A stretch of DNA of 64,000 bases from an uncultured Bacteroidales bacterium (GCA_964587535.1 CAZPMA010000001.1:13153-77152); one strand, 5' to 3'. Counted from the stretch's first letter, positions 5,524-64,000 are shown. The notes: generated from the letters alone by a model not told the origin. Program-made: numbers and translations.

Positions 5524-6744
5524 CTATTCTTTTCCGTCTAAATAATCTTGCAGGTAAGCATATCGTTCAGTTAATTTTCCATCTTTTGCAATGGTAGCAC
5601 GCTCAATCATTCCTGTATCGTCATTACCAAATAAAGATGGATAAACCTTATCTATTAAGTTCCCGCCAAAATCTGTAGATGCATTTCGTGGTAATTCGCC
5701 AGGTAAATTATCAACTGACATTACGGTAATATTTTTAGGACTTATAAAAGGGGGTTCATCTTTTCCTGTTACCGGATTATACCCAAAAAACGGATCTGCA
5801 ATTGTAGAAGCCTTAACTGTTGATGCTATAGGCCCATCTACATCGCAGCTAACATCAGCAATAACAGTTATGTTAAAATCAGGATCAAGATAATCTTCCT
5901 TAGTTATAAATTTAGGTGATTTTGGATCCCAAAAATGACATGCTATAAATATATCAGTCACTTTGGTATATGGTTTAAAAGTAGATTTATACTCCTCAGG
6001 ATGTTTAAAGAAATGTTGCAAATCAAATTGCATTCCACCTTTGTGTTCAACATAATGCACCGGATCAATTCTGCAAATTACAGGTTCGTCAAATTCTTTA
6101 TTTAGAAATTCTTCTGGAGATACTTCGCGAATATTTAGTTGACTTAAAGTCTCCATTGCTCCCATAGCAACACGACCACCGCCGGTTACAAGAATCTTTT
6201 TCTTTTCAAGTTTTATTTTCTTCAATCCTGCATACATTTCATCCATATCCTTACATTGATGAGCAGGCTTTAAATTAAAATTGTCGGTACGTATTCCTCT
6301 TGCTCTTAGTCCGTTGTAAGCACCAACTATTCCTGCCCAACGACCAAATGCTACAATACGTTGATTGTGATAGTCAGTTAAATATTCATAATCGACAAGT
6401 GTAATTTTCTTTTTGATTATTTCTTGTAATAAACCACGATTATATGGTTGTTTTTTTGCTACGTGAGCAAAAAACATATATGTTTTATTGGCAATTAATG
6501 TTTTTGGATCAACTTCTTTTACACCCAAAAGAATATCACAATCACTTAAGTCTTCCTTCATATTTAAATCCAGATACTGGTATTCTTCGTCGGTATAACA
6601 ACGAATATCACTTGGCTGAACATATACATCCACATCAGGGAAACGTTCTGTCAATTTTACAACTTGGGATGGTGTTACCGGAACACGCTTGTCAGGTGGG
6701 TTTTTTGTTTCTCTTAAAACACCAACTTTTAACCTTTTTGCCAT
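5524..6744 (-). CDS. AlaDH/PNT-family NAD(P) dehydrogenase (saccharopine dehydrogenase / lysine-ketoglutarate-reductase-like)
   Basis: N-terminus KVGVLRETKNPPDKRVPVTP. Rossmann motif VTGGGRVAMGA. Typical length of about 400 aa. Confidence 0.6.
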   Translation of the reverse strand: MAKRLKVGVLRETKNPPDKRVPVTPSQVVKLTERFPDVDVYVQPSDIRCYTDEEYQYLDLNMKEDLSDCDILLGVKEVDPKTLIANKTYMFFAHVAKKQPYNRGLLQEIIKKKITLVDYEYLTDYHNQRIVAFGRWAGIVGAYNGLRARGIRTDNFNLKPAHQCKDMDEMYAGLKKIKLEKKKILVTGGGRVAMGAMETLSQLNIREVSPEEFLNKEFDEPVICRIDPVHYVEHKGGMQFDLQHFFKHPEEYKSTFKPYTKVTDIFIACHFWDPKSPKFITKEDYLDPDFNITVIADVSCDVDGPIASTVKASTIADPFFGYNPVTGKDEPPFISPKNITVMSVDNLPGELPRNASTDFGGNLIDKVYPSLFGNDDTGMIERATIAKDGKLTERYAYLQDYLDGKE

Positions 6745-9438: not shown

Positions 9439-10635
9439 TTAATATGAACTAAGAATTTCGTATTGAGCAATTTCGATATTCTTCTGCATCTTTGACAACA
9501 TTGTTAAGCCTATTATTAATGATGTTTTCCGAAATGATTGCTCATAAGTTAAACCTGTTAATATATTAAAATCAAGTAATGCATTTAAGGTTTCTTTCTG
9601 ATATTCATCTTTAGCTAGTTCCAGGGCATGTATTCTATATGCATTAAAATCATCTCGCAGCTTATAAGCGTTATCATCTTTTAACATGGCTTTGCCAAAT
9701 GCCCTAACATCATCTTTAAATTTTATTTCTCCGTTTTCGTCTACATTACTAGTTAATTCTGCTTTAATTGTTACAATTTGTTGATCGAGATTTAATGCTA
9801 GTTTATATAATTTTTCAATATTAGGCTCTAGTTCTTTATAATCTTCTTTTAGCTTTAAAGAATCAAGTAAGGAAATGTTCTGTTTTGTAAATTTCTGACT
9901 TACCTGGTTAGCAAGTTCATTCATATTGTCAAAATTATCAACAATGGTTTTAGATAACCGAGTTGTCGAAATCATAAAAATTACTCCAAAGCCAATAAAA
10001 ACGATTAATAATGTATAACCCACTCTTGCTTTTGTTTCACTGGCTTTTTTATAAGCGTTTACTAAATATAATGGCAAGAATAACAATATAAGTAAAAGCT
10101 CACCAATCAGTAAAGATTTTGCAGCTCCTGGCCAATGCATTACTTTAAATAAAACGCCAATCATTAAAAATGAAATAGTTAAATAACCTGTAATTGAAAG
10201 AAAAATGTTTTTGTTTTCTAATTGTTCTTTATACGATGTGTAAAAAAACAAAGGAAAAAATCCTAATATTGTTAACATGGTTCCTAAAGACAATAACATA
10301 CTTGCCGGTGGAATATGATACATTTTTAAAATAGCACCTAGCCATAAAAGTAATGCACTTAAGCTTCCTATAATTACCATTGATTTTTTCATAATCTGAA
10401 ATTTTAAATTAATTGATAACAAAGTTTGATGTTGAACTTTTTTGAAAGTTGAACTTTCAATGGAGTTCATTAGATTACTGTAAGCTTCTTTAAATGAAGT
10501 TTTTTCATTAATCTTTTCTTCGAGAGAACAGCAAATATGATCAACCATTTCGTCTAATAAGACATCCATGCTTATTCCTTTTTGCTGAACATCTTGATAA
10601 ATAAAAGCAATGTTTTCTTCAGTTAAAGTGTTCAT
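9439..10635 (-). CDS. PadR-coupled multi-pass membrane protein with a C-terminal soluble helical domain
   Basis: 4-nt overlap with the upstream PadR gene. N-terminal cytosolic helix bundle, about 6 TM segments, then a coiled-coil-like tail. Confidence 0.55.
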   Translation of the reverse strand: MNTLTEENIAFIYQDVQQKGISMDVLLDEMVDHICCSLEEKINEKTSFKEAYSNLMNSIESSTFKKVQHQTLLSINLKFQIMKKSMVIIGSLSALLLWLGAILKMYHIPPASMLLSLGTMLTILGFFPLFFYTSYKEQLENKNIFLSITGYLTISFLMIGVLFKVMHWPGAAKSLLIGELLLILLFLPLYLVNAYKKASETKARVGYTLLIVFIGFGVIFMISTTRLSKTIVDNFDNMNELANQVSQKFTKQNISLLDSLKLKEDYKELEPNIEKLYKLALNLDQQIVTIKAELTSNVDENGEIKFKDDVRAFGKAMLKDDNAYKLRDDFNAYRIHALELAKDEYQKETLNALLDFNILTGLTYEQSFRKTSLIIGLTMLSKMQKNIEIAQYEILSSY

Positions 10636-51469: not shown

Positions 51470-52039
51470 GTGAAAGACGATAAACATTATATACAGCGCG
51501 TAATTAATGGAGATGTAAATGCTTTTAGCTATTTGGTTGAGATGCACAAAGGATTGGTTTATACAATTGCTCTTAGAATGCTAAAAAATACTGAAGATGC
51601 AGAAGAATTAGCTCAGGATACTTTTGTTAAGGCCTATAATTCCTTAAAAGATTTTAAATTTGAATCTAAATTCTCTACCTGGCTATATAGAATAACATAT
51701 AATGGAGCTATTTCCAAATTAAGAAAAAAACAAATTGAATTAGCTGATGTTGAAAGTGAGAATTTACCAGAGCATGAAGTTATTTCTGCTTTTAACTCAA
51801 TAAATGAACTTCAAAGAAATGAACAGAAAAAATATATAAATGAAGCAATTGAGCAATTAAAACAAGAAGATGCTTTATTAATTACATTATATTATTTTGA
51901 CGAAAGTACAATAGAAGAAATTAGTCAGATAACTCAACTTACTGTTTCAAACGTTAAGGTTAAATTACATAGAGCCAGGAAACGTTTTTATGATGAACTG
52001 AAATATATTTTAAAAGAAGAAGTGAGGGCTATATTATGA
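51470..52039 (+). CDS. ECF-type RNA polymerase sigma factor
   Basis: Region 2 (AEELAQDTFVKAY...FSTWLYRITYNGAISKLRK) and region 4 (IEEISQITQLTVSNVKVKLHRARKRF). Confidence 0.88.
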   Translation: MKDDKHYIQRVINGDVNAFSYLVEMHKGLVYTIALRMLKNTEDAEELAQDTFVKAYNSLKDFKFESKFSTWLYRITYNGAISKLRKKQIELADVESENLPEHEVISAFNSINELQRNEQKKYINEAIEQLKQEDALLITLYYFDESTIEEISQITQLTVSNVKVKLHRARKRFYDELKYILKEEVRAIL

Positions 52040-52452
52040 ACAATAAAAAATTAAATATTGACGAATACACTAAAAAACTAGTGCGAAAAGGAGATATTAA
52101 TCAACCCGGTCCTGATTTTACAAAAAGTGTGATGGGTCAAATACTAAAAGATCCTAAGGTTCAGGTAAGCCTTTTTACTGCAGATGATAAAAAAAGTAAC
52201 TGGTGGTTATTTATCTCCGTTGGGGTAATGTTTATTGCCTATCTTATCTATTATTTTATTAAAAATGGATTTAATATTAATTCGGGTAATGGTTTGTTGG
52301 AATCTTTTGGATTTGTAAAAGCTTTCTCTGATTTTTTCATTAATTTATTTAGCGAGTTAAGTATTTCTCCGTTTATTTTATTAGCCTTAATAGGGGTTGT
52401 GGTTCTAGTTATTCTTGATAAAACGATAGTTCGGTATTTATATTCAATTTAA
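52036..52452 (+). CDS. Membrane protein co-transcribed with the ECF sigma (candidate anti-sigma factor)
   Basis: 4-nt overlap with the sigma gene. Cytoplasmic N-terminus followed by two TM helices. Confidence 0.5.
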   Translation: MNNKKLNIDEYTKKLVRKGDINQPGPDFTKSVMGQILKDPKVQVSLFTADDKKSNWWLFISVGVMFIAYLIYYFIKNGFNINSGNGLLESFGFVKAFSDFFINLFSELSISPFILLALIGVVVLVILDKTIVRYLYSI

Positions 52453-52473
52453 AACATAAAAACATAATTAATT

Positions 52474-52509
52474 AAGGATCGTAAATTTTGCGATCCTTAT
52501 TTATTTTTT
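52474..52509 (+). terminator. Intrinsic terminator
   Basis: Stem aaggatcg/cgatcctt followed by a T-rich tract. Confidence 0.75.
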
Positions 52510-52548
52510 AAATTTGAGAGCAAATAAAAGATTAATTGATCCCATAAA

Positions 52549-53106
52549 TTGAAATATAATAATAGCTTAATAAAAGGTATTCGTAATCAGGACCAATTTA
52601 TACTGCAGAAAATTTATTCTGATTATTTTCCTACTATTAGAAGATATATTATAGAAAATAATGGAAGCGAGCAGGATGCCAAGGATGTATTTCAAGATGC
52701 AATTATTATAATTTACAGAAAAATAAAAGAAGGAACATTTGAACTAACTTCATCGTTTAAATCATATATATATTCTGTGTGTCGTTTTTTGTGGTTAAAG
52801 GAATTGTCAAAAAATAAGGAAAGAATAGAAAAAACAAATAGTTATCTTGAATATGAAGAAGTTCCTGAAATATCTGAAGATGAGTTTGTAAAAAACGAAC
52901 AATATAAATTATATCAACATCATTTTAAAAGGTTAAGTAAAGATTGTCAAAAGGTATTGCAGTTGTTTTTAAATAAAGTTGCATTAAAAGATATTGCCGA
53001 AGAGTTAGGAATTGATAGTATGCAATATATAAAAAGAAAAAAGTTTAAATGTAAAGAGCAACTTGTAAAATATATCAAGAGCGATCCTAAATTTAAAGAA
53101 AAATAA
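52549..53106 (+). CDS. Sigma-70-family (ECF-like) sigma factor, TTG start
   Basis: Region 2-like DAKDVFQDAIIIIYRKI...YIYSVCRFLWLKELSKN and region 4-like LKDIAEELGIDSMQYIKRKKFKCKEQL. There is no ATG in the first 150 codons. Confidence 0.75.
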   Translation: MKYNNSLIKGIRNQDQFILQKIYSDYFPTIRRYIIENNGSEQDAKDVFQDAIIIIYRKIKEGTFELTSSFKSYIYSVCRFLWLKELSKNKERIEKTNSYLEYEEVPEISEDEFVKNEQYKLYQHHFKRLSKDCQKVLQLFLNKVALKDIAEELGIDSMQYIKRKKFKCKEQLVKYIKSDPKFKEK

Positions 53107-53840
53107 TGGAGAATAAGTTTGAACAAATAGAAAGTTACCTGGCAGGAGAGATGTCCATTAAAGAACAATTAGCTTTTGAAGAGCTGCTTCGAAAAGATAG
53201 GGAACTTATGCTCGAATTCAAACTTAGAAAAAGCATAAATAATGCTATTAATGAAAATGATGTGATGGAATTAAGAGAATCTTTATCTAATATTACCTCA
53301 ATTCCTGTTAAAAAGAAACCTATAATATTAAACCCATATATAATTACAACAGCTGCTGCCATAATTATATTTGCCATAGTTTCAAGTCTATATTTAAATA
53401 ATCGAAGTTATAATACAAATGACTTATTTAATCAATATTATAAGAAATATCCATCGATTATAAATTCTAGATCAATTGCAGAATCAGAAAAGGAGCAACT
53501 TTTTATTGATGTGTTTAACTATTATGATGATAATAATTATGAAAATGTTATCTTAACTATTAAAGAGCTTTTAAAAACCAATGATAACAATAGTTTATTG
53601 TTGTTTTATTTGTCGGTTAGTTTAATGGAGCAAAATGAACTAAAACAATCTGAACACTATTTAAAGCAATTGGTCAACAATAAAAACCATGTATTTTGGG
53701 AACAGTCACATTGGTATTTAGCATTAAATCTTATAAAACAGAATGATAAGTTTGAAGCAATAAGAATCTTAAAAGTTATTGTTGACGAAGACATGTCTAA
53801 AAGAAAGGAAGCAGAGAAATTAATTAAGATCTTGGAATAA
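53106..53840 (+). CDS. Anti-sigma-like single-pass membrane protein with a periplasmic TPR domain
   Basis: ATGA overlap with the sigma stop. N-terminal about 75-aa cytoplasmic helix domain, TM PYIITTAAAIIIFAIVSSLYL, and a TPR-like C-terminus. Confidence 0.65.
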   Translation: MENKFEQIESYLAGEMSIKEQLAFEELLRKDRELMLEFKLRKSINNAINENDVMELRESLSNITSIPVKKKPIILNPYIITTAAAIIIFAIVSSLYLNNRSYNTNDLFNQYYKKYPSIINSRSIAESEKEQLFIDVFNYYDDNNYENVILTIKELLKTNDNNSLLLFYLSVSLMEQNELKQSEHYLKQLVNNKNHVFWEQSHWYLALNLIKQNDKFEAIRILKVIVDEDMSKRKEAEKLIKILE

Positions 53841-56628
53841 ATTTCTTTATGAATATTGTTATTATAATTGATAACAATATAATACCCCCTAACAGAACAT
53901 ATATAAATTTATTTGAGAATAGGGCATCCTTATTACCAATTATAACATATCCAGACCAAAAATAAGGATGTGCATGCAATTGGTCAGAATTTTTAATAAA
54001 CTCAAGTTTAGACTTTTGTAATGATTTTGACTTGTTAAATCCTTTGATAAGGTTTCTATAATATTCAGCCATTAGGTTAACTCCCGATTTATCTTCTACC
54101 GACCATAAAGTCATAACAAGTGAAGGACAGCCAGCGTAAAAGAATCCTCTTGCCAGGCTAATAACTCCTTCGCCTTTATGCAATTTCCCGCTTCCGCTAT
54201 TACATGAACTTAATACCGCCATACGGCTGTTCAGCTTTAAGTTATATAATTCATAAGTATTTAAAAAATCATCTTCAAGGGAATCGGCAGTCTGCGAAAA
54301 TGCCATTTTAGAATACATCGGATTTTCATCATCCATTATGGTATGCATTGCTAAATGAAGAATATCGTAATTAGCTGCAACTTCTTTAAACCTTTTTTCA
54401 CTTGCTTTACTACCAATATATGTATTTCCTTTTGTTAACTCTGAAATTGCAATTGCTTCTTCCTTAATTCCTTTTAGTGGAAATAACTTTTCTCTGTATT
54501 GTTGTCGGATCGAAATAAAGTTACTATCCATTGTTTCAACAGGTTCATAGCTTGGTGCAAAAGCAGCTAAACTTTTTACCTTTTTTCTTTTATGATGTTT
54601 CTTATCAATTAAAAACCTAGCTGAATATGAATATGATATTGTATTGGTTTTAATTAAATATGGTAAATCCGTATAATTTAGTTTATCATATTTTTTAATA
54701 TCAGAAATAAGTGTTTCAAAAGGCAAATAAGCAAGTTCTCCATCTGGTATAATCGTAATGTGTTTTCTTTTTAGATGATGGTTAATTGGTTTAATGAGAA
54801 TGTTGTAAACATAATTAGATTTTTCTTGAAATAAATACAAATCATTTAATCCATGATACGAGAAATTGTTTTGGGAAAGTGATTTTAATAATAAATCAAG
54901 ATTAGAATAAAATGTGGTATCTATATTACTCTTATATAGATAAATATTATATTTTGAAATGATAAAAGAATAGATGGAACTATCATTAATGGAAAAATCA
55001 ACTAATACATCATTGAACTTAAGTGATTTCTGTAATTCTTTTAATTTTGTCTCTGAATTTGAGTATTTTAATGAGTAATAATCGTTAAAGTTATTTTCAA
55101 GGTAATTTATTAATTCATCGTGCTTTTGTTTTTTTTCAAACAGATATTTGTTCCAATAGGATAATTTATTTTCATCTGGAGTTTTTTTCTTATTTTCTTC
55201 ATAAATAAGTTCTTCGTAGTTCCAAATACTTTTTTCAAGTTCTTTTTCCAGATTTATTAGAGAGTCTGGTATTCCGCCAATATTTAATGCATAATTGTTT
55301 TTTATTGATTCAGTTAATACAGCAGATTTACTCGATTCACAATAATTAAAAGCTTTTTCAAGATATTTTTGCTCCTTAGTAATTTCATATAAACTATAAC
55401 TGGCATTTAAAGCCTTTGAAAAAGTTTCATTTTCATTATCAGCTAAAATAAGTTTACTTTCTTCACTAATATATCCTGATCTTATTTTATTAATTGCATC
55501 AATAGCCAGGTCATAGGTTTGTATACTTAAATTATATAAATCAATATTCTTATTTTTTGAAGCAATTTCTGTCAGCGTAATTGCTTTGTTTTTTATGGCA
55601 TTTAAATAATGTGTTTTAGAAAGGACATTATTTATATCGGGGTTTGTTTTAATATCATTATTCTCAAAATTTGGTGAAATTGCAATTAAAGATTTTTGAA
55701 AGTAGAACAGTGCACTATCTAGCATTTTATTTCTAAGAAAATGTTTTCCAAAATCATTATAGGCACCTGCAAGATAAGGGTGTTTCTCACCAAAGTTCAA
55801 TTTATAAATATTAATAGCAGATTCAAAATAGTCATAAGTATTCTCATTTTTATTTTGCTGTGATAGAAATACTGCATAATTTAAAAAAGTACCTGCACTT
55901 TTAATATTATTTGTTCCAAACTCGTTAACAGCATTTTTAATTGCTTCTCTATAATGCATGTCTGCTAATTTATAGTTTCTTAAGTTATTATAGCAAATGG
56001 CAAGATTTCCTAATGTTGTATATTTACTATTTGGATTTAAAATAATGCTCTTTTTATAGTGTTGTATAGCAGTTGAATAGTCAGATGTGTTTTTATAAAT
56101 ATTTCCTAAGTTATTATATGCTATTGAAATATATTTTTTGTTTTTTATAGTATCACGGTTATATATATTATAAGCCATAAGCAGGTAGTCTTTTGACTTA
56201 GAGTAATCTTTTTGTTTACTGTAAATATTAGCCTTATTTGCATATACATATGCAGTGAGTATTTCATTTCTTTTATTTAAATAAATGGTTTCTGCTTTAT
56301 TATAACAATCAATTGCTTCTGAATATTTTCCATTTATTTTATAGATAATTCCTAGACTTTGATAGGCGTTAGCTAAAGCAATAGAGTCGATGTGGTTTAA
56401 GTTTTCATAAAGTTTAACTGCAAATTGACTGTAAAAAAGAGCACTATCAATAATCCCAGTTTTACCAAAATCCATTCCCTTCTGATAATATAATTCAGCT
56501 AATTTATGATCTTTAATATCATTCCTTTCATTAGCTGCAGTATAAAAAACAGATATAAATAAAATTGTTAAGTAAGTAAGTACATTTTTAAAAAACATAA
56601 TTGTTATTTTGGTAACGTTTTTATACAT
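53824..56628 (-). CDS. TPR-repeat CHAT-domain (caspase-like) protein with an N-terminal signal/anchor and a C-terminal TM helix
   Basis: Many TPRs in the N-terminal 400 aa. CHAT His/Cys dyad contexts ILHLAMHT and AVLSSCNSGSG. C-terminal FIYVLLGGIILLSIIITIFI. Confidence 0.85.
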   Translation of the reverse strand: MYKNVTKITIMFFKNVLTYLTILFISVFYTAANERNDIKDHKLAELYYQKGMDFGKTGIIDSALFYSQFAVKLYENLNHIDSIALANAYQSLGIIYKINGKYSEAIDCYNKAETIYLNKRNEILTAYVYANKANIYSKQKDYSKSKDYLLMAYNIYNRDTIKNKKYISIAYNNLGNIYKNTSDYSTAIQHYKKSIILNPNSKYTTLGNLAICYNNLRNYKLADMHYREAIKNAVNEFGTNNIKSAGTFLNYAVFLSQQNKNENTYDYFESAINIYKLNFGEKHPYLAGAYNDFGKHFLRNKMLDSALFYFQKSLIAISPNFENNDIKTNPDINNVLSKTHYLNAIKNKAITLTEIASKNKNIDLYNLSIQTYDLAIDAINKIRSGYISEESKLILADNENETFSKALNASYSLYEITKEQKYLEKAFNYCESSKSAVLTESIKNNYALNIGGIPDSLINLEKELEKSIWNYEELIYEENKKKTPDENKLSYWNKYLFEKKQKHDELINYLENNFNDYYSLKYSNSETKLKELQKSLKFNDVLVDFSINDSSIYSFIISKYNIYLYKSNIDTTFYSNLDLLLKSLSQNNFSYHGLNDLYLFQEKSNYVYNILIKPINHHLKRKHITIIPDGELAYLPFETLISDIKKYDKLNYTDLPYLIKTNTISYSYSARFLIDKKHHKRKKVKSLAAFAPSYEPVETMDSNFISIRQQYREKLFPLKGIKEEAIAISELTKGNTYIGSKASEKRFKEVAANYDILHLAMHTIMDDENPMYSKMAFSQTADSLEDDFLNTYELYNLKLNSRMAVLSSCNSGSGKLHKGEGVISLARGFFYAGCPSLVMTLWSVEDKSGVNLMAEYYRNLIKGFNKSKSLQKSKLEFIKNSDQLHAHPYFWSGYVIIGNKDALFSNKFIYVLLGGIILLSIIITIFIKKFIPRS

Positions 56629-56806
56629 GGGAACTTTTAAAAGGTTTTAAATATTAAAAAATAATGTTCATATTATCAGCTTATTAGCGTAAAAATATCA
56701 AAAAAGTAAAAAAAAAATCAAATTCAGGGGTCACCTTTTTATTAGTTCCGGAATAAATAGGTGAAAGCTTATTAAACCAAACAAAAATATTTAAAATAAA
56801 AGAACT

Positions 56807-56977
56807 ATGAAAACGCTTAAAGGCATATTTGAAAATAAGACATCAAATAAATCGATGAATACATTTACAGAAACGTTAGATATTAAAAGTATGTTGTTGA
56901 TAAAAGGAGGAGATGGAGATGATGATGATAAAGACTCATGGCCTCCAGCAAGTGATCCTTCAAATACAAGTAACTAG
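56807..56977 (+). CDS. Unannotated 56-aa peptide with a double-glycine leader (bacteriocin/pheromone-type precursor)
   Basis: MKTLKGIFENKTSNKSMNTFTETLDIKSMLLIKGG|DGDDDDKDSWPPASDPSNTSN. Hydrophobic residues sit at -4, -7 and -12 relative to GG. It has its own strong terminator, and a C39 exporter lies in the same cluster. Confidence 0.65.
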   Translation: MKTLKGIFENKTSNKSMNTFTETLDIKSMLLIKGGDGDDDDKDSWPPASDPSNTSN

Positions 56978-57015: not shown

Positions 57016-57050
57016 TGATCAACTCAAAGCCCTTTGGGTTGGTCATTTTT
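57016..57050 (+). terminator. Intrinsic terminator after the GG-leader peptide gene
   Basis: 13-bp stem (tgatcaactcaaa/tttgggttggtca, two G-U pairs), loop gccc, then TTTTT. Confidence 0.8.
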
Positions 57051-57075: not shown

Positions 57076-57822
57076 ATGCATATGAACCTTGAAACTATTG
57101 AAAAGTATATTGATGGTGAATTAGCCGGAAAAGAATTACTGAATTTTGAAGAATTAATTTCAACTAATTCAAGTTTAAATCGAGATTATCGATTGAGTCT
57201 CGAAATTAATAAGTCTATTGTCGAAGATGATGTAATGCAGCTTCGGGAAACCCTTGATTATATGTATAATGAGAATGTTAAAATTAAACGTTCACCAAAT
57301 ACATTTGCCAAACGTAAAGTATTTTATGCTGCTGCCTCTATTGCTCTATTATTAGCTATAGGTGGTTTTTATAAAAATTTTACGGACGGTAAAATGTCTG
57401 GCTCATCTATTTATGATAAATATTACCAGCCTTACGAAGTATCTGTTACATACAGATCAGGAAACACAGAAGTTGATAAGGTATTTCTTTCTGCATTGCA
57501 AAAATATGAAGAACGCGAGTATGAAAAAGCAATGGTTCTTTTTGAACAATTATTAGAAATTAAAAAGAATGATATGGCATTAAACCTTTATTCCGGTATA
57601 ACATATATGGAAGAAAAAGAATACCAAAACGCATCAAATTCATTTAATAACATTATTGATAACAAGAATAATTTATTTGTTGAGCAAGCCAAATGGTATT
57701 TATCATTATGCTACGTAATTACTGAAGATAAAGAAAATGCAATTACACTTTTAAATGAATTAGTGCAAGAAGAAAGTTACTATAAAAAAGATGCAAAACA
57801 TATTTTACGAGAAATAAACTAG
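57076..57822 (+). CDS. Paralogue of the 53106 TM-TPR anti-sigma-like protein
   Basis: N-terminus aligns by eye (IEKYIDGELAGKELLNFEELI...DDVMQLRETL versus IESYLAGEMSIKEQLAFEELL...NDVMELRESL). It has a TM helix and a TPR C-terminus. Confidence 0.7.
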   Translation: MHMNLETIEKYIDGELAGKELLNFEELISTNSSLNRDYRLSLEINKSIVEDDVMQLRETLDYMYNENVKIKRSPNTFAKRKVFYAAASIALLLAIGGFYKNFTDGKMSGSSIYDKYYQPYEVSVTYRSGNTEVDKVFLSALQKYEEREYEKAMVLFEQLLEIKKNDMALNLYSGITYMEEKEYQNASNSFNNIIDNKNNLFVEQAKWYLSLCYVITEDKENAITLLNELVQEESYYKKDAKHILREIN

Positions 57823-57828
57823 TAGCTT

Positions 57829-58572
57829 ATGAGACAGAGTATTAGGCCACCAAAAACGTTAAAAATGAATGATAATGCAATTGAAGTCGAAAAGATTTCA
57901 TTTTTATCACACATTTCTCATGGAATAAGAACACCGCTAAATGCAATTATGGGATTTTCTAAACTTCTAAATTTTAAAAATAATAGTCTTAGCAAGCAAA
58001 AAAGGTATATCAGGGAAATTCTTAAAGGAAGTAATTTGTTATTGCAATTTGTTGATAATGTGGTTGACCTTAGTCTGTTAGAAAATAACAAATATGCTTT
58101 AAACATTAAAAAGTTCAATGTTAATCAATTAATATGGGATTTTATTGAGTACTTCTACGATAAAAAGAATGAAGAAAAGATTTCTGATCTTAACCTTATG
58201 TTAGTTTGGGATGATGAAGTTAAGGACCTTGAGATGCTATCAGATTCATTTTTAGTAAAAAAATGCTTACAGTTACTTTTTAATATTATAACTACAAGAT
58301 ATTCAGAGAAAAATTTCGAATTAGGATATTCAATCTATAATGAGAATATGTTAAAAATTTTTATGCGACCATCAAACAAAAACCTGGAGAATGTTCAAAT
58401 TGAAAAGAACTTCTTTTTGTATGATGTGGATACAAATAATTCGTTTGAGATGTTTAACTATCAGGTTCTTTGTAGAAGCATTAACCTTTTAAATGGAGAT
58501 TTAAATTTGTTTTCAGAAGACAATGAGTATTGGTTTGCAATACCCATCAATTTAAACTATAAAATAAATTAA
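57829..58572 (+). CDS. Sensorless HisKA-domain protein with a degenerate ATPase domain
   Basis: H-box FLSHISHGIRTPLNAIMGFSKLL lies about 25 aa from the N-terminus. No TM segment. No recognisable G1 (DxGxG) or G2 (GxGLG) box downstream. Confidence 0.7.
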   Translation: MRQSIRPPKTLKMNDNAIEVEKISFLSHISHGIRTPLNAIMGFSKLLNFKNNSLSKQKRYIREILKGSNLLLQFVDNVVDLSLLENNKYALNIKKFNVNQLIWDFIEYFYDKKNEEKISDLNLMLVWDDEVKDLEMLSDSFLVKKCLQLLFNIITTRYSEKNFELGYSIYNENMLKIFMRPSNKNLENVQIEKNFFLYDVDTNNSFEMFNYQVLCRSINLLNGDLNLFSEDNEYWFAIPINLNYKIN

Positions 58573-58573
58573 T

Positions 58574-58927
58574 ATGAGAGATTTTAATATATGTATACCG
58601 TCAACCGAAGGTAAAGAAGTGTTGAACTGCAATGAAATAATGTATGCAGAAGCAGAACATGATTATTCAAGAATCGTTTTTAAAGACGAAGGAGTAATTG
58701 AAGTATTGTTAACAATAACTGAATTGGAATACTTTTTATCGAAAAGGGGATTTTTCCGATTTAATAATACGACACTGGTTAATTTAAGATATGTTCAGGT
58801 AATATTTCCTTTAGATGCATCGATAGTTATACTGGAAAATGGTGAAGAGATTTCTGTTAGTAAGGAAAGAAGAGAAGATTTGTTTGAAGGTTTAAAAGAA
58901 GTTTTTGAATTACAAGAAGCGGTTTAA
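58574..58927 (+). CDS. Stand-alone LytTR DNA-binding domain protein (1 of 3)
   Basis: 117 aa. Contains ...IMYAEAEHDYSRIVF...LEYFLSKRGFFRFNNTTLVNLRYV. No receiver domain. Confidence 0.75.
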   Translation: MRDFNICIPSTEGKEVLNCNEIMYAEAEHDYSRIVFKDEGVIEVLLTITELEYFLSKRGFFRFNNTTLVNLRYVQVIFPLDASIVILENGEEISVSKERREDLFEGLKEVFELQEAV

Positions 58928-58981: not shown

Positions 58982-59317
58982 ATGGAATCAGTTAGTTTAA
59001 AACCCACAATTGAAAAAATAACTAACCTCAAAAATGTTATTTATTTTGAATCAATAGGAGAGTTTACAAAAATACATTTCTATAATGGTACTAAGAACTT
59101 AGTTGATGAAGATATAAGTTATATTGAAAGTTTACTTCCTAAAAATAAGTTCTTTAAAATTCACGATCTGTTTATTATCAATCTTGATTACCTAAAACTG
59201 ATTAAGGGGCAAGCAAATAAAAATGCCAGGTTACACCATAATCTGGAAATTGCAATTGATCCGAATAGGTACAATGAGCTAATCGTGTTTATGAAAGAAG
59301 ATTATGTGGTGTGGTAA
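58982..59317 (+). CDS. Stand-alone LytTR DNA-binding domain protein (2 of 3)
   Basis: 111 aa. Contains VIYFESIGEFTKIHF...IESLLPKNKFFKIHDLFIINLDYL. Confidence 0.8.
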   Translation: MESVSLKPTIEKITNLKNVIYFESIGEFTKIHFYNGTKNLVDEDISYIESLLPKNKFFKIHDLFIINLDYLKLIKGQANKNARLHHNLEIAIDPNRYNELIVFMKEDYVVW

Positions 59318-59364: not shown

Positions 59365-59712
59365 ATGAAAAGAAAAGTAGTTCTATTTGATGATGAAGAA
59401 AATATTGTATTAAAAAAAATCGAAGAAATTGTATATTTTGAATCATTAGGCAAAAAAACAAAAACAATTTGTTGTGAACGTGATGAATACATCATTAAAG
59501 AAAGTTTATCAACAGTGGAAGAAAAATTGCCTGATAGTACATTTTTTAAGATACATAAGTCATTTATTATAAATATTGATTGCATTAAAGGAATCAATCT
59601 GGATAATAATAAGAAGGTACTTCTTAATAATGGGATACAATTAAATGTAGCTCACCGTAAATATCGAGAATTTTTAGAGTTTGTAAGATGTAGGTTTGAA
59701 TTCTGGCAGTAA
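59365..59712 (+). CDS. Stand-alone LytTR DNA-binding domain protein (3 of 3)
   Basis: 115 aa. Contains IVYFESLGKKTKTIC...VEEKLPDSTFFKIHKSFIINIDCI. Confidence 0.8.
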   Translation: MKRKVVLFDDEENIVLKKIEEIVYFESLGKKTKTICCERDEYIIKESLSTVEEKLPDSTFFKIHKSFIINIDCIKGINLDNNKKVLLNNGIQLNVAHRKYREFLEFVRCRFEFWQ

Positions 59713-59949: not shown

Positions 59950-60141
59950 ATGAAAAAAATAGAAAGTATCAAGAATGATCTATTTAAAAAGTTTGAAGAT
60001 GATCAAATAATTGACATGAGTGAATGCAAAGGAAAAGGAAGATATAGTACAGGATTAGGTTATAGATATGACCAGTTATGTGAAGATTTTTTGCGTACAT
60101 ATGAAAATGGTGATTATCGTTTAGAACTTGAATTTAGATAG
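59950..60141 (+). CDS. 63-aa small protein, candidate RiPP precursor for the downstream ATP-grasp/SPASM enzymes
   Basis: MKKIESIKNDLFKKFEDDQIIDMSECKGKG-RYSTGLGYRYDQLCEDFLRTYENGDYRLELEFR. First gene of the biosynthetic run and followed by a hairpin. Confidence 0.5.
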   Translation: MKKIESIKNDLFKKFEDDQIIDMSECKGKGRYSTGLGYRYDQLCEDFLRTYENGDYRLELEFR

Positions 60142-60157
60142 GTTTTTAAGTTAAACT

Positions 60158-60191
60158 AGAAAGTAATCTTTTTTATATAAGGTTACTTTCT
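60158..60191 (+). terminator. Hairpin after the small peptide gene (possible partial terminator or processing site)
   Basis: 11-bp stem agaaagtaatc/ggttactttct (one G-U pair) with a 12-nt loop and a weak T tract. Confidence 0.45.
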
Positions 60192-60227
60192 TATCCTAAT
60201 ATTTAGAAATAAAAAAGCGCTACTAAA

Positions 60228-61304
60228 ATGAAAAAAAGTTTTTTAACAGCTATTTTATTTTTACTTTTTATTAATATTTATTCGAGAAGTAATATTAATA
60301 AAGATTATAAGAAATATTACGAGTTTATCAATAGTGCTGAGTTACTGATCGTAGAAAATGATTTTTTTAATGCTCATCAGATTTATTCTGAAGCATTTAG
60401 GCAATGGCCAAAGGCTCCTTCGATTGATTATTATAATGCATTACTATGTGCTGTGAAATCAAACATTTATTCTGAAGCATTTAGTTATTTAGAAATATTA
60501 GCAAAAAAGGGTTGGGAATTAGACTATTTTTTAGAAAATCCATACCTTTCCGAGTTAAGAAAAGAAAGCGAATGGGAAAGATTTGTAGAAAATTATCCCA
60601 AATTTAATCAATTATATACAGAATCGTTAGATACTGAGCTGTTAAATGAATTAGCTAATATGTTAATTAAAGATCAATCTCTTGCAAAGTCGAATAGGTA
60701 TAATGAATATTTAAAAACAGTGATAAGTAATGCTGACCGAATTTATGAACTAATCTATAAAAACCAAACCAATAATATACATTTTGGTTCGGTATATTCG
60801 ATCTTGTATAGCCCATTCCCTGTTGTTCTATTGAGACATTATTGTGGGATTTATAATGAAGTACAGAAAGGGTATATTGATGTGTCAAAAATAATTAATG
60901 ATACATTGATGTTAGTAAATTTAGAAGATGCTTTATTAAAAGAAATTGAGAATGGAAATCTCTCACCACTTGTTTATGACTTAGCTGTTACGTATAGTAA
61001 TGATGCAAATCTTTATGGGAATGATTTATTTTTAGAGGTTGATACCGTTATTATTAGAAGAAAGATAGAAATTGAAGAGGAAAAACAAATTAATGAAAAG
61101 CGTTTAAAGATTGGTCAAGAACCAATTAGAGATTACATAAAAAAGTTGGAATTTAAGAGCAAGAAAATTGATGAAAATTTAGAAAAATATTTTTTTAAAT
61201 TCAGGATATCAAGTTCTTATACTTTAATTAAAGGTAATCCAGAAAGATTGAAAAGTTTTATAGAAGACAGATTAAATGAAGGATGGGTAAGAGTTACACC
61301 TTAA
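60228..61304 (+). CDS. Secreted hypothetical protein (TPR-like helical N-terminal part)
   Basis: Signal-like MKKSFLTAILFLLFINIYS. Its 3' end overlaps the ATP-grasp gene start by 22 nt. Confidence 0.6.
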   Translation: MKKSFLTAILFLLFINIYSRSNINKDYKKYYEFINSAELLIVENDFFNAHQIYSEAFRQWPKAPSIDYYNALLCAVKSNIYSEAFSYLEILAKKGWELDYFLENPYLSELRKESEWERFVENYPKFNQLYTESLDTELLNELANMLIKDQSLAKSNRYNEYLKTVISNADRIYELIYKNQTNNIHFGSVYSILYSPFPVVLLRHYCGIYNEVQKGYIDVSKIINDTLMLVNLEDALLKEIENGNLSPLVYDLAVTYSNDANLYGNDLFLEVDTVIIRRKIEIEEEKQINEKRLKIGQEPIRDYIKKLEFKSKKIDENLEKYFFKFRISSSYTLIKGNPERLKSFIEDRLNEGWVRVTP

Positions 61305-62284
61305 TAATTACAAATAAATTTGATTATTGTACAGATAGTATTATAAAATGGTTAAAGTTTTACAATCAAAGTTTTATAATAATTGATACAAATAAAAAAG
61401 TACAAATCACAAAAATTCTTATTAGTAATAAAGAAAAGAGAATTGAGTTATTAATCGATAATAAAAATATCGAATTAAAACAAATTGATTCTGTTGTTTT
61501 TTGGAAAGGAAGAATCCAATTCGACATACCAATAGTTCAATTAGAAAATAAAAAAGGAGATTACAAAAGAGAAGTGGATAGGTTCCTTAAAAGAGAATTA
61601 GAGACTATAACTAATTTAATTTATGATGATTTAAATAAAAAGAAAATTTTTGGTTTATGTATAACTAAGAACCCGAATAAACTTATATTATTAAATCTTG
61701 CAAAAGAAGTCGGATTGAATATTCCCGAAACAACAATTTCTTCAGTATCTAAAATTATTAAAGATAAAGTTAATGATACGGTATCAATTACCAAACCAAT
61801 ACAAGAGATATTTAATTATAGAGAAAGAGATAGAGCTTATGCAACCTTCACACAAATTATAAGTGTCAGAAAGGATCAAAGTTGGGATAAAATAATCTTT
61901 CCTTCTTTAATACAGAATAATATTGAGAAAAAATATGAATTAAGAATATTCTATTTTAATGACGAATTTTATACAATGGCTATATTTTCCCAATCTGATC
62001 AAAAAACTAGTACAGATTTTAGAGATTACAATTATGAAAAGCCCAATAGAATGGTTCCTTTTTTATTACCAAATGACATTAAAAAGAAATTAAGAACTTT
62101 AATAGCTCAAATAGGATATAATTCATGTTCAACTGATATAATTGTTAATAAGGATGGTGATTATATCTTTTTAGAAACTAATCCTTTAGGTCAGTTTGAT
62201 TTGGAATCATTGGTTTGTAATTATAAAATTGAAAAAAAGATTGTTGAATATTTAAAAAATAAAAGCTTGTGTGCAATAATATAG
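61283..62284 (+). CDS. ATP-grasp peptide maturase (MvdC/D-like; grasp-with-spasm type)
   Basis: N-terminus LIITNKFDYCTDSIIKWL. ATP-grasp core NK..LLNLAKEVGLNIPET, ELRIFYF, DFRDYN and FLETNPLGQFD. Confidence 0.8.
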   Translation: MGKSYTLIITNKFDYCTDSIIKWLKFYNQSFIIIDTNKKVQITKILISNKEKRIELLIDNKNIELKQIDSVVFWKGRIQFDIPIVQLENKKGDYKREVDRFLKRELETITNLIYDDLNKKKIFGLCITKNPNKLILLNLAKEVGLNIPETTISSVSKIIKDKVNDTVSITKPIQEIFNYRERDRAYATFTQIISVRKDQSWDKIIFPSLIQNNIEKKYELRIFYFNDEFYTMAIFSQSDQKTSTDFRDYNYEKPNRMVPFLLPNDIKKKLRTLIAQIGYNSCSTDIIVNKDGDYIFLETNPLGQFDLESLVCNYKIEKKIVEYLKNKSLCAII

Positions 62285-62425
62285 GATTACCCATATTATT
62301 CGAATATATTAAAGTAGAGGAAACTGATAAAAAAAGAAATCCTAAGATTAAGTTTATCCAAATGAAAACTGGTGAAACTAGTATTGTAGTTCCCTCTAAT
62401 AAAAGAATATCAAAATTATTTTAAA

Positions 62426-63532
62426 ATGGTTTATAAACTCTTTTCTAATTGTATTCCTGTTAAGGGATATAGAAGAAGTATTATTGTAGATACTCAAAGA
62501 GAGAATTATTATATTATTCCTAATGGATTATATGAAATACTGGTAAATGATACATTTTATTCAATTAAAGATATAAAAAGTAAAATTATGTTTGAATATC
62601 ATGATATTATAGACGAATACTTTGAGTATTTAAAAAATAGGGATTTGATTTTTAGTTGTGATATTAATGAAGTTAAATATTTTCCAAACTTGGATTTATG
62701 TTGGGATGAACCACATACTATTATAAATTCTATTATAGATGTAAATAAATATAGTCAACATAATTTCAAAGAAATATTTATACAACTAGATGAATTATTA
62801 TGTAAACACCTTGAAATAAGGTTTTTTAATTATGTGAAGTCAACTGATTTATATGAAATTATTGCAAAAACAGATAATAAATCTTTTCAAAGTATTGATA
62901 TAATTATGCCCTATAATAAAGAGTTTTCTATATTCGATTTAAATGAGATTTTAGATAAGTTCAAAAGGGTATCAAGCATTGTTATTTATAATTCTCCAAA
63001 TATTATTACCAACAAAGGAATAGAAAATTGTGATAATCACATTTTTTTTATTAAAAATGAGATTTCAGATAAAACAAATTGTGGAGTAATTAAAACATCT
63101 TCATTTTCTATGAACTTAAGTTTTTTCTGTGAGGCACAAGAATATAACACTTGCTTAAATAAAAAGTTGTGTATTGATACAGATGGAAATATAAAGAATT
63201 GTCCAAGTATTAATAAGTCTTATGGGAAAATAGAAAATATAGCTTTAAAAGATATTATAAATAAAAAAAAATTTCAATCTTATTGGCATATATCAAAAGA
63301 TCAAATTGAAGTGTGTAATTTATGCGAGTACAGATATATGTGTAATGATTGCAGAGCTTACGTAAAGGTTAATGACAATTTATACTCTCAACCTTTGAAA
63401 TGTAATTATAATCCATTTATTGCTAAGTGGGAAGGTGAAAAAGGGTACATTCCTATTGAAAATTTTGGATCTTATAATACTCAAGGTAAGTATATAGTTA
63501 ATTTAGAATATATGAAAGAGATAGATATATAA
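62426..63532 (+). CDS. SPASM-domain peptide maturase lacking the radical-SAM CxxxCxxC motif
   Basis: C-terminus C..C(x4)G(x4)C ... CNLCEYRYMCNDC ... KCNYNP, a 7-Cys SPASM pattern. No CxxxCxxC anywhere. The position where it is expected reads VNKYSQHN. Confidence 0.75.
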   Translation: MVYKLFSNCIPVKGYRRSIIVDTQRENYYIIPNGLYEILVNDTFYSIKDIKSKIMFEYHDIIDEYFEYLKNRDLIFSCDINEVKYFPNLDLCWDEPHTIINSIIDVNKYSQHNFKEIFIQLDELLCKHLEIRFFNYVKSTDLYEIIAKTDNKSFQSIDIIMPYNKEFSIFDLNEILDKFKRVSSIVIYNSPNIITNKGIENCDNHIFFIKNEISDKTNCGVIKTSSFSMNLSFFCEAQEYNTCLNKKLCIDTDGNIKNCPSINKSYGKIENIALKDIINKKKFQSYWHISKDQIEVCNLCEYRYMCNDCRAYVKVNDNLYSQPLKCNYNPFIAKWEGEKGYIPIENFGSYNTQGKYIVNLEYMKEIDI

Positions 63533-63577
63533 TAAATTTAAATGGAAAAAATATTAATCTTATCTTTATGACAAAAA

Positions 63578-64000
63578 ATGTCCTTCCCATTTTATAAACA
63601 ACTCGATGCTATGGATTGTGGCCCTTCGTGTTTACGGATGGTTGCAAAACATTATGGTAAAAATTATACCTTACAAACCCTTCGCGATAAAAGCTATATA
63701 ACCCGCGAAGGCGTTTCAATGCTAGGAATTAGCGATGCTGCAGAATCGATAGGTTTTCGAACAATGGGTGTTCGCATTACATTTGATCAACTTATGGAAG
63801 AAGCTCCGTTACCCTGTATCGCGCATTGGAAGCAAAATCATTTTGTTGTTGTTTACGAAATTAAAAAGGCTCGTAAGGGTAACATTATAGTGAAAGTTTC
63901 TGATCCTGCAAGAGGATTAATAAATTTTACCAAAGAAGAATTTCAACAGGGATGGGCCAATACAATCGAAGATGGCGAGAATAAAGGTTTATGCCTTTTG
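63578..64000 (+). CDS. Peptidase-C39-domain ABC exporter, N-terminal fragment (runs off the window)
   Basis: MSFPFYKQLDAMDCGPSCLRMVAKHYGKNYTL... (catalytic Cys context) ...CIAHWKQNHFVVV. Open to base 64000. Confidence 0.85.
   Translation, partial: MSFPFYKQLDAMDCGPSCLRMVAKHYGKNYTLQTLRDKSYITREGVSMLGISDAAESIGFRTMGVRITFDQLMEEAPLPCIAHWKQNHFVVVYEIKKARKGNIIVKVSDPARGLINFTKEEFQQGWANTIEDGENKGLCLL

Follow-up and report, generated by a model that had tools for sequence, protein, structure and literature searches.

A sigma factor gene linked to genes for a membrane TPR protein and a predicted periplasmic TPR-CHAT protease in Bacteroidota

In DdvA from Myxococcus xanthus, an anti-sigma factor and a periplasmic tetratricopeptide repeat (TPR)-CHAT part are fused. 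It has been proposed to be its own site-1 protease, and after removal of the TPR-CHAT part its degradation depends on RseP (PMC11506125). DdvA alone among characterized anti-sigma factors has a TPR-CHAT domain, its trigger is not established, its active site is without three helices that are present in other CHAT proteases, and proteins like it have been reported only from Myxococcota and one Comamonas (PMC11506125). Here we describe a locus from an uncultured Bacteroidales bacterium (GCA_964587535.1 CAZPMA010000001.1:13153-77152; all 64,000 nucleotides are referred to as the window). In this locus, genes for a sigma factor of the extracytoplasmic function (ECF) type and a transmembrane (TM) protein with TPRs (TM-TPR1) converge with a gene for a TPR-CHAT protein, next to a gene for a small peptide. 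Sigma factor, TM-TPR protein, CHAT protein and small exported peptide apparently make up a conserved and widespread signalling module of Bacteroidota that had not been described. The features of the module are:

52549-53106, + strand: ECF-type sigma factor gene, 185 amino acids (aa), TTG start
53106-53840, + strand: TM-TPR1, putative anti-sigma factor, 244 aa, single-pass, with a C-terminal TPR domain
53824-56628, - strand: TPR-CHAT caspase-fold protease, predicted to be periplasmic, 934 aa
56727-56764, + strand: two-part promoter-like element GGGGTCACCTTTTT-N9-CCGGAATAAATAGGTGA, common to orthologous loci, 5' of the peptide gene
56807-56977, + strand: double-glycine-leader peptide gene, 56 aa, with ...MLLIKGG followed by DGDDDDKDSWPPASDPSNTSN
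57076-57822, + strand: TM-TPR2, a paralogue of TM-TPR1 with like architecture and the same invariant residues

DdvA and its sigma factor DdvS (PMC11506125; PDB 8rot, 8rw5) resemble the module in several ways. Both combine an ECF sigma factor with a membrane protein of a single pass and with a TPR-CHAT part that is periplasmic (by prediction in the module) and has a His-Cys dyad, both would follow the proposed logic of a CHAT site-1 cut and then RseP, and the DdvA fold matches our model of the window's CHAT protein. The module looks, in effect, like DdvA divided over two proteins. DdvA is one polypeptide with a zinc-binding anti-sigma domain, a TM helix and TPR-CHAT. In contrast, TM-TPR1 and CHAT are encoded by separate genes on opposite strands, which places them outside the DdvA family of single-polypeptide fusions. 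In addition, the module's TM-TPR protein has its own small three-TPR domain and no zinc motif, and its CHAT protein has its own signal or anchor segment and a C-terminal TM helix. The DdvA family has been reported from Myxococcota and one Comamonas, whereas the module's family belongs to Bacteroidota. DdvS drives CRISPR genes and genes of a cyclic-oligonucleotide-based antiphage signalling system (CBASS), whereas the candidate regulon of the module is a double-glycine peptide and regulators near genes for ribosomally synthesized and post-translationally modified peptides (RiPPs).

The module can also be compared to classical regulated intramembrane proteolysis. In RseA/DegS/RseP, RsiW/PrsW and RsiV/signal peptidase, a membrane-bound anti-sigma factor is cut first at a periplasmic site 1 and then within the membrane (PMC11506125). 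The site-1 enzyme of the module would differ in being a caspase-fold cysteine protease that the module itself encodes. A preliminary description of this DNA had put forward such an enzyme as a new variant of regulated proteolysis. The split, two-protein form is apparently new, but the precedent of DdvA (PMC11506125) tempers the claim. Our literature searches, whose coverage ended short of the group descriptions in the supplement to the ECF reclassification, found no description of the split module; the main text of the reclassification paper mentions neither CHAT nor TPR.

A further TPR-CHAT protease, Csx29, is part of Craspase, a type III-E CRISPR system in which, as reported, Cas7-11 works with Csx29 and Csx29 cleaves Csx30 (PMC10028731). 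Csx29 is the best structural match of the module's CHAT protein. Unlike the module, Craspase is cytoplasmic, is switched on by target RNA bound to Cas7-11, and has neither a membrane topology nor a peptide. The substrate Csx30 reportedly holds a partner ECF sigma factor, and its cleavage is said to act on that sigma factor. The module contains no CRISPR genes. We also dropped the possibility that it is a known defence system, because PADLOC models matched none of seven module proteins.

Association of the sigma, TM-TPR and CHAT genes

Our results support the conclusion that the sigma/TM-TPR pair and the TPR-CHAT protein form a genuine functional unit. We scanned for related loci in two ways. 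The first scan was anchored on TM-TPR, used one genome per species, and gave 37 loci, almost all of them from metagenome-assembled genomes of uncultured Bacteroidales. A convergent CHAT gene was directly downstream of 21 of the 24 sigma/TM-TPR pairs and was not there in the other three. In many of these loci the neighbourhood is that of the window throughout, which alone would mean little. Six of them, however, contain the cassette without the window's flanking synteny (L026, L027, L029, L031, L033 and L036). There was also a locus from Saprospiraceae in which TM-TPR is convergent with a gene for a 1,059-aa CHAT protein and no sigma gene adjoins.

The second scan was anchored on CHAT, using an alignment of eight CHAT sequences, and covered metagenome contigs, in which 80 loci were found, with CHAT identities of 31-58%. 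Both TM-TPR and a sigma factor of this subfamily were encoded in 49 of these; 10 had TM-TPR only, 7 had sigma only, and 14 had neither. Some contigs were long enough to have at least 6 kb on each side of CHAT, and 19 of these 21 loci had both partners. Among the 14 loci with neither partner, just two (L085 and L095) had flanks of this length.

The genes were found in at least five orders:

CHAT convergent with sigma and TM-TPR (the canonical order)
CHAT convergent with sigma; TM-TPR upstream and divergent
TM-TPR divergent; CHAT and sigma on a shared strand, adjacent or with a slight overlap
sigma/TM-TPR about 1.7 kb 5' of CHAT
CHAT, sigma and TM-TPR on a single strand

For example, CHAT and sigma are on the same strand in L074, where CHAT ends at 9877 and sigma starts at 9874. 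Genes that are retained across rearranged orders and differing neighbourhoods usually form a functional unit. The preliminary description had joined these genes on the basis of the window, and the association clearly extends past this genome and is much more frequent than chance would give, as seen in 21/24 loci of the first scan and 19/21 of the second.

We found that the convergent genes also overlap. The 3' ends of TM-TPR1 and CHAT share 17 nt in the window (53824-53840), just as had been noted before, and the distance between the two genes is -24 to +34 nt in most orthologous loci. In most canonical loci the 3' overlap is 4-24 nt, and there is no terminator between the genes. That is, transcripts from the two strands must overlap.

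The TM-TPR family itself is large: at E values of 1e-30 or better there were 1,469 clusters (at 50% identity). Its members are annotated only as generic TPR or hypothetical proteins. None of the best 150 of these 1,469 strong relatives was a fusion of CHAT length. The related loci include some from Marinilabiliales, and Sunxiuqinia rutila (L040) has a sigma gene together with a TM-TPR-like gene.

Predicted properties of the three proteins

The start of the sigma gene at TTG, which was part of the preliminary description, agreed with the list of open reading frames (ORFs) and with the sequence, as did its coordinates and those of the other genes described. This TTG, at 52549, is the sole canonical start codon (ATG, GTG or TTG) downstream of the in-frame stop at 52537-52539. 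TTG is found at the identical aligned codon in nearly all of the close orthologues (~20), and more distant ones have GTG or ATG. This looks like selection favouring weak translation initiation. The protein matched TIGR02937 (ECF) with 61.8 bits (cut-off 42.9) over residues 19-175, and Pfam Sigma70_r2 with 30 bits (cut-off 24), which makes it an ECF (group 4) member of the sigma-70 family. Region 4 gave no separate Pfam match, and the sigma sequence had no match among PDB sequences.

There are two features just 5' of the sigma gene:

52473-52499, + strand: strong intrinsic terminator, 12-bp stem and T run
52509-52516, + strand: TAAATTTG, which fits TAnnTTTG, 33 nt 5' of the sigma TTG

The terminator ends an upstream ECF sigma/anti-sigma pair (51470-52452) and sets it apart from the module's sigma gene. 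In this pair, which is syntenic among close relatives, the gene for a second ECF sigma factor, a protein of 189 aa in which regions 2 and 4 are clear, is coupled to one for a 138-aa membrane protein. The TAAATTTG site is kept as TAGATTTG in most close orthologues, and we take TAnnTTTG at this position to be the -7 box of Bacteroidota housekeeping promoters. A scan for sigma-70 consensus promoters was uninformative, giving 67 sites versus 65 expected.

The sigma and TM-TPR1 genes had been described as coupled through an ATGA junction. They do overlap, by 1 nt, but the junction reads aaaTAATGgag; that is, the stop codon and the ATG share one nucleotide (TAATG). The other features ascribed to the second protein, a single membrane pass and a periplasmic TPR part, were consistent with our predictions. 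TM-TPR1 has one hydrophobic segment, at about residues 78-97, with three Lys or Arg in the 15 residues preceding it and one following. The same asymmetry was present in 57 of 61 TM-TPR proteins, with averages of 4.5 ahead of the TM helix and 1.5 behind it. The excess of positive charge ahead of the helix indicates an N-in orientation and thus a periplasmic TPR domain. These topology calls, and those for CHAT below, are based on hydropathy and charge. Matches of TM-TPR1 to Pfam were weak TPR matches in the C-terminal half.

A structural model of TM-TPR1 (predicted local distance difference test score, pLDDT, 79) has four N-terminal helices (residues 2-65) that are predicted to be cytoplasmic, followed by the TM helix and a short helix, then by a non-helical loop (112-127) and a compact domain of three TPRs (128-243). 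In structure comparisons, this last domain resembled YbgF, BamD, SycD-type chaperones and the peptide-binding TPR1 domain of HOP. Within the loop, R122 is invariant and S123 nearly so, and the flanking residues Y111, Y112, Y115 and E128 are conserved. Conservation of R122 and S123 spans both TM-TPR paralogue families, down to 22% identity. This exposed juxtamembrane loop is therefore the obvious candidate for a site of cleavage or docking. The paralogue that had been noted at 57076 is real: TM-TPR2 is 29% identical to TM-TPR1 (E = 3e-32). There is also a second size class of TM-TPR proteins, ~440-515 aa, in which the cytoplasmic module is repeated three to four times ahead of the TM helix (L074 5045-6361; P0242-P0254; others).

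TM-TPR1 has several features in common with anti-sigma factors. Its gene follows and overlaps a sigma gene, it is predicted to be a single-pass protein with the N-terminus inside, and its predicted cytoplasmic domain is small and helical. We call it a putative anti-sigma factor from this context and architecture.

The CHAT protein is as the preliminary description had it, a TPR-CHAT protein of 934 aa with an N-terminal signal or anchor, an intact dyad and a C-terminal TM helix; these features were recovered from Pfam, motif and hydropathy analyses. It matched the Pfam CHAT family (PF12770) at 3.3e-57, as well as TPR_12. A TPR superhelix of ~500 aa is followed by the CHAT domain (603-899), with the dyad residues His762 and Cys809, and both LHLAMHT and SSCNSG were found in the sequence. 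We took 93 distinct full-length CHAT orthologues from the scanned loci. His758 and His762 (HLAMH) and Cys809 (SxCNxG) were invariant in 93 of 93. Based on the match to PF12770 and the invariant dyad, the protein belongs with the CHAT proteases (clan CD, caspase fold), which have a CHAT domain and a His-Cys dyad.

The N-terminal hydrophobic segment (residues 10-28, either a signal or an anchor) was present in all 93 orthologues. The C-terminal helix is very hydrophobic, starts at about residue 909 and is followed by KKFIPRS; in 92 of 93 orthologues there was such a helix with a net positive tail. Given the positive-inside rule, the positive tail and the lysines ahead of the first hydrophobic segment indicate that the body of TPR-CHAT is periplasmic. 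CHAT and the TPR part of TM-TPR are thus predicted to face the same compartment, the periplasm. This had been proposed for the window, and the prediction held for the families (92/93 CHAT proteins and 57/61 TM-TPR proteins).

The AlphaFold model of the CHAT protein had a pLDDT of 88.9 and a predicted template modelling score (pTM) of 0.85. Its best matches in the PDB were Csx29 of Craspase (7y9x_B, 2.5e-14, TM-score 0.51 on target), human separase and DdvA; Foldseek E values for DdvA were 7e-11 and 1.6e-10. As in separase and Craspase, the model has a TPR superhelix packed on a C-terminal CHAT domain. These relatives were reached by fold search. Comparison of the full-length CHAT sequence to PDB sequences gave TPR matches only.

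The promoter-like motif, the peptide and the downstream genes

We found a motif that is shared among the orthologous loci. In the window it precedes the peptide gene, and its strict core, GGGGTCACCTTTTT-N9-CCGGAATAAATAGGTGA, occurs once in the 64 kb. In the more general form GGGTnACCTTTT-N9-11-(C/G)G(A/T)AT(A/T)AA (GAATAAA form), there were 71 occurrences over all loci versus 1.6 expected. The motif matches the geometry of ECF-type promoters, with a -35 element that contains ACC, a T run, a spacing of ~16 nt, and GAATAA or GTATTA. We consider the element at 56727-56764 a candidate for the promoter read by the module's sigma factor. The motif also lies 5' of the sigma gene in nine variant loci, where its start is 33-42 nt from the start codon. 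Autoregulated ECF promoters normally sit just 5' of the sigma gene, so this is the position expected under ECF autoregulation. An ORF with a double-glycine leader was 41-134 nt downstream of the motif in 46 of 76 distinct occurrences, and elsewhere the motif was 5' of a HisKA-like gene. In the window's lineage, TCACCT and AGGTGA within the motif form an inverted repeat, which may be an operator or an RNA hairpin.

The leaders of the peptides are alike (for example, ...EELxxIKGG). The cores are ~10-25 residues, often acidic or proline-rich, and lineage-specific, with types that include DDDLWPP-type, YGIPVPIIITE, MSDKSVLDDCLV, CSNHTGVEDEDCWL, poly-Pro and poly-Glu. Peptide genes in other loci include those in L074 (~6780, - strand), L059 (~5900-6550, - strand) and L076 (~3806, + strand), and some loci (L059, L057 and L062) have two to four tandem copies. 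We rejected the notion that the peptide is confined to the window's lineage. This was an artefact of a narrow profile, and a search downstream of the motif found peptides in almost all variants.

Downstream of the peptide gene, in addition to TM-TPR2, the window contains:

57028-57050, + strand: weak terminator-like hairpin and T run, after the peptide gene and before TM-TPR2
57829-58572, + strand: soluble HisKA (DHp) protein, 247 aa, with the conserved His box SHGIRTPL
58574-58927, 58982-59317 and 59365-59712, + strand: three LytTR DNA-binding proteins, 111-117 aa
59950-60141, + strand: 63-aa peptide
60228-61304, + strand: 358-aa protein without assigned function
61283-62284, + strand: grasp-with-spasm ATP-grasp maturase (TIGR04192, 2e-75)
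62426-63532, + strand: SPASM maturase (TIGR04193, 3.6e-93)
63578-64000, + strand: C39 peptidase domain, the N-terminus of a peptide-cleaving ABC exporter (Peptidase_C39, 1.2e-35); the gene continues past the window end

The hairpin may be an attenuator. HisKA was the only Pfam match of the 247-aa protein, with no HATPase_c detected, and LytTR was the sole match of the three DNA-binding proteins, with no receiver domain. Thus, this set is not a two-component system made up of a kinase with HATPase_c and a regulator with a receiver domain. A HisKA-like gene recurs next to TM-TPR in variant loci.

From 59950 to 64000 the window is a grasp-with-spasm RiPP cluster that includes the start of the C39 ABC exporter, and the window as a whole has both a double-glycine leader and a C39 exporter. 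C39-domain ORFs numbered 23 across the loci and the window. The cargo 3' of the regulatory cassette varies by locus. In L005 it is only the exporter and a protein with a weak match to Pfam Beta-barrel_AprE. In L001 it is a set of peptides with lanthipeptide leaders and a second CHAT gene. This second TPR-CHAT gene (~1,000 aa) is at 18967-20741 in L001 and at 18741-20729 in L012, and in both loci several small ORFs that weakly match a lanthipeptide leader domain (PF28317) adjoin it. This is a hint of possible links between CHAT proteins and other peptide systems as well. In one branch of the family, 11 loci have a ~410-aa protein that is sorted by the type IX secretion system (T9SS; Por_Secre_tail, with an Ig-like or carboxypeptidase-regulatory-like domain), encoded directly 5' of CHAT on the same strand (L068, L075, L079, L082-L084, L089, L094 (weak), L100, L107 and L117; for example, L083 4828-6033). 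The motif precedes the T9SS protein and CHAT in L068, L107 and L117.

Pheromone circuits of Firmicutes that use double-glycine peptides include ComC/ComAB/ComDE and BlpC/BlpAB/BlpHR. Like the module, they have a peptide with a GG leader and a C39 ABC exporter. Unlike them, the module is without a membrane histidine kinase receptor; its HisKA-like protein is soluble, and Pfam detected no ATPase domain in it. The signal would instead enter through the ECF sigma factor, TM-TPR and CHAT, and the host phylum is Gram-negative. The LytTR regulatory systems HdrRM and BrsRM (PMC6193735) are like the module in that a receiver-less LytTR protein lies beside a membrane protein and LytTR is near bacteriocin or RiPP genes.

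A possible peptide-responsive switch and its alternatives

The reading that we favour, with a little less than even confidence, is that the module is an ECF switch that answers its own exported peptide, and that the CHAT protease removes the TM-TPR anti-sigma factor. At rest, the supply of sigma would be low (TTG start, housekeeping-type promoter), the N-terminal domain of TM-TPR1 would keep sigma at the membrane, and TPR-CHAT would be in the periplasm, held by its C-terminal helix. Upon a signal, the His762/Cys809 site would cleave TM-TPR on its periplasmic side, the best candidate being the juxtamembrane loop YYxxY...RS...E. An intramembrane site-2 protease would complete the cleavage and free sigma. 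Free sigma would then use the GGGTnACC-N16-GAATAAA promoter ahead of the peptide gene and the operon of TM-TPR2, the HisKA-like gene and the LytTR genes. The C39 ABC transporter would cleave and export the peptide, which would probably return as the ligand of the periplasmic TPRs and close an autoinducing loop, and the LytTR proteins would then activate the adjacent RiPP genes. Of this, the analysis shows the genes present and their conservation, the predicted topology, the fold class, the intact dyad and where the motif lies; that TM-TPR binds sigma, that CHAT cleaves, what the signal is and that the promoter depends on this sigma factor are inferred.

Several observations weigh against this switch. 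The N-terminal domain of TM-TPR had no significant anti-sigma match in Pfam (61 members), in the PDB (with an N-terminal profile) or in NCBIfam, where matches to anti-sigma models were marginal (E = 0.05-0.23 for TM-TPR and 2e-4 for the paralogue). The HxxxCxxC zinc motif is absent, and residues 1-72 of TM-TPR1 contain no Cys and no His. Many relatives of TM-TPR are ~500 aa with the N-terminal module in three or four copies, an unusual design among anti-sigma factors. Ahead of the sigma gene, the window's own lineage has TAnnTTTG in place of the motif. Partners are missing from two well-flanked CHAT loci (L085 and L095) and from one sigma/TM-TPR locus (L037). Even in DdvA, site-1 cleavage by CHAT is a hypothesis (PMC11506125), and in the module it would be one by extension. 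Lastly, the peptide gene is linked to CHAT at least as tightly as the sigma gene is, so the peptide could be the substrate of CHAT and not its ligand.

This last possibility leads to a different scheme, which we think unlikely. In it, CHAT acts on the exported peptide, either trimming it to an active form or destroying it, and not on TM-TPR; sigma and TM-TPR would only sense and regulate. The preliminary description had also mentioned processing of the exported peptide as an alternative. The peptide gene adjoins CHAT in nearly all variants, usually divergently, and in L076 and L078 the motif, the peptide gene and CHAT follow one another along one strand. The second CHAT gene in L001 and L012 adjoins peptides with lanthipeptide-type leaders, and peptides are common ligands of long TPR arrays. 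This tight adjacency speaks for a connection between the peptide and CHAT. However, removal of the double-glycine leader is already accounted for by the C39 ABC exporter, which the window and many related loci encode. Moreover, the peptide cores are short (~10-25 residues) and vary among lineages, in contrast to the invariant active-site region of CHAT and the juxtamembrane motif of TM-TPR, and in DdvA the CHAT domain is joined to an anti-sigma factor and not to a peptide system.

It is also conceivable, and in our view equally improbable, that CHAT and TM-TPR form a receptor complex in the periplasm. TM-TPR would be an inhibitor or adaptor, in the style of securin and separase, and not a substrate. 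CHAT would cleave something else, for instance a T9SS protein, or would serve as a non-proteolytic scaffold, and sigma would be freed by a conformational change. For separase and Craspase, control comes from the binding of partner proteins or RNA, and DdvA dyad mutants have no resting phenotype (PMC11506125). The T9SS-sorted protein encoded directly 5' of CHAT in 11 loci, and following the motif in three, would be one such target, but it is limited to one branch of the family and TM-TPR is nearly universal. The invariant dyad also speaks against a purely structural role for CHAT.

Finally, the adjacency might be nothing but the inherited synteny of one lineage, with no functional coupling; the closest relatives are indeed syntenic throughout, including an unrelated histidine kinase, MscS, an M64 peptidase and DUF6249, but this is very hard to reconcile with three genes that persist despite differing flanks and at least five changes in their order and strand, with the presence of both partners in all but two of the well-flanked CHAT loci, with a common promoter motif that ties the genes together, and with protein identities of 30-58%, which rule out near-identical copies of one mobile element.

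Returning to the switch in which CHAT removes TM-TPR, the results suggest that the idea behind DdvA is also realized with two separate proteins, and commonly so in Bacteroidota, in contrast to the narrow distribution of DdvA itself. Because the protease and its presumed substrate are separate proteins, cleavage in trans could be tested directly, unlike in DdvA. In addition, with the peptide as a candidate signal and with a candidate output promoter, the module makes the question of the trigger experimentally approachable. More tentatively, and with considerable doubt on our part, the module could be a hitherto undescribed form of peptide quorum sensing, present in many members of a Gram-negative phylum: a peptide whose expression is driven by sigma from a dedicated promoter would be exported by the C39 transporter and sensed by the TPRs of CHAT, which would cut TM-TPR in trans and free more sigma, with regulated proteolysis in the place of a kinase. 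If there is such a peptide loop, it would be an unusual type of cell-cell signalling in a phylum that is important to gut, marine and sediment communities, and it would regulate RiPP gene clusters as well.

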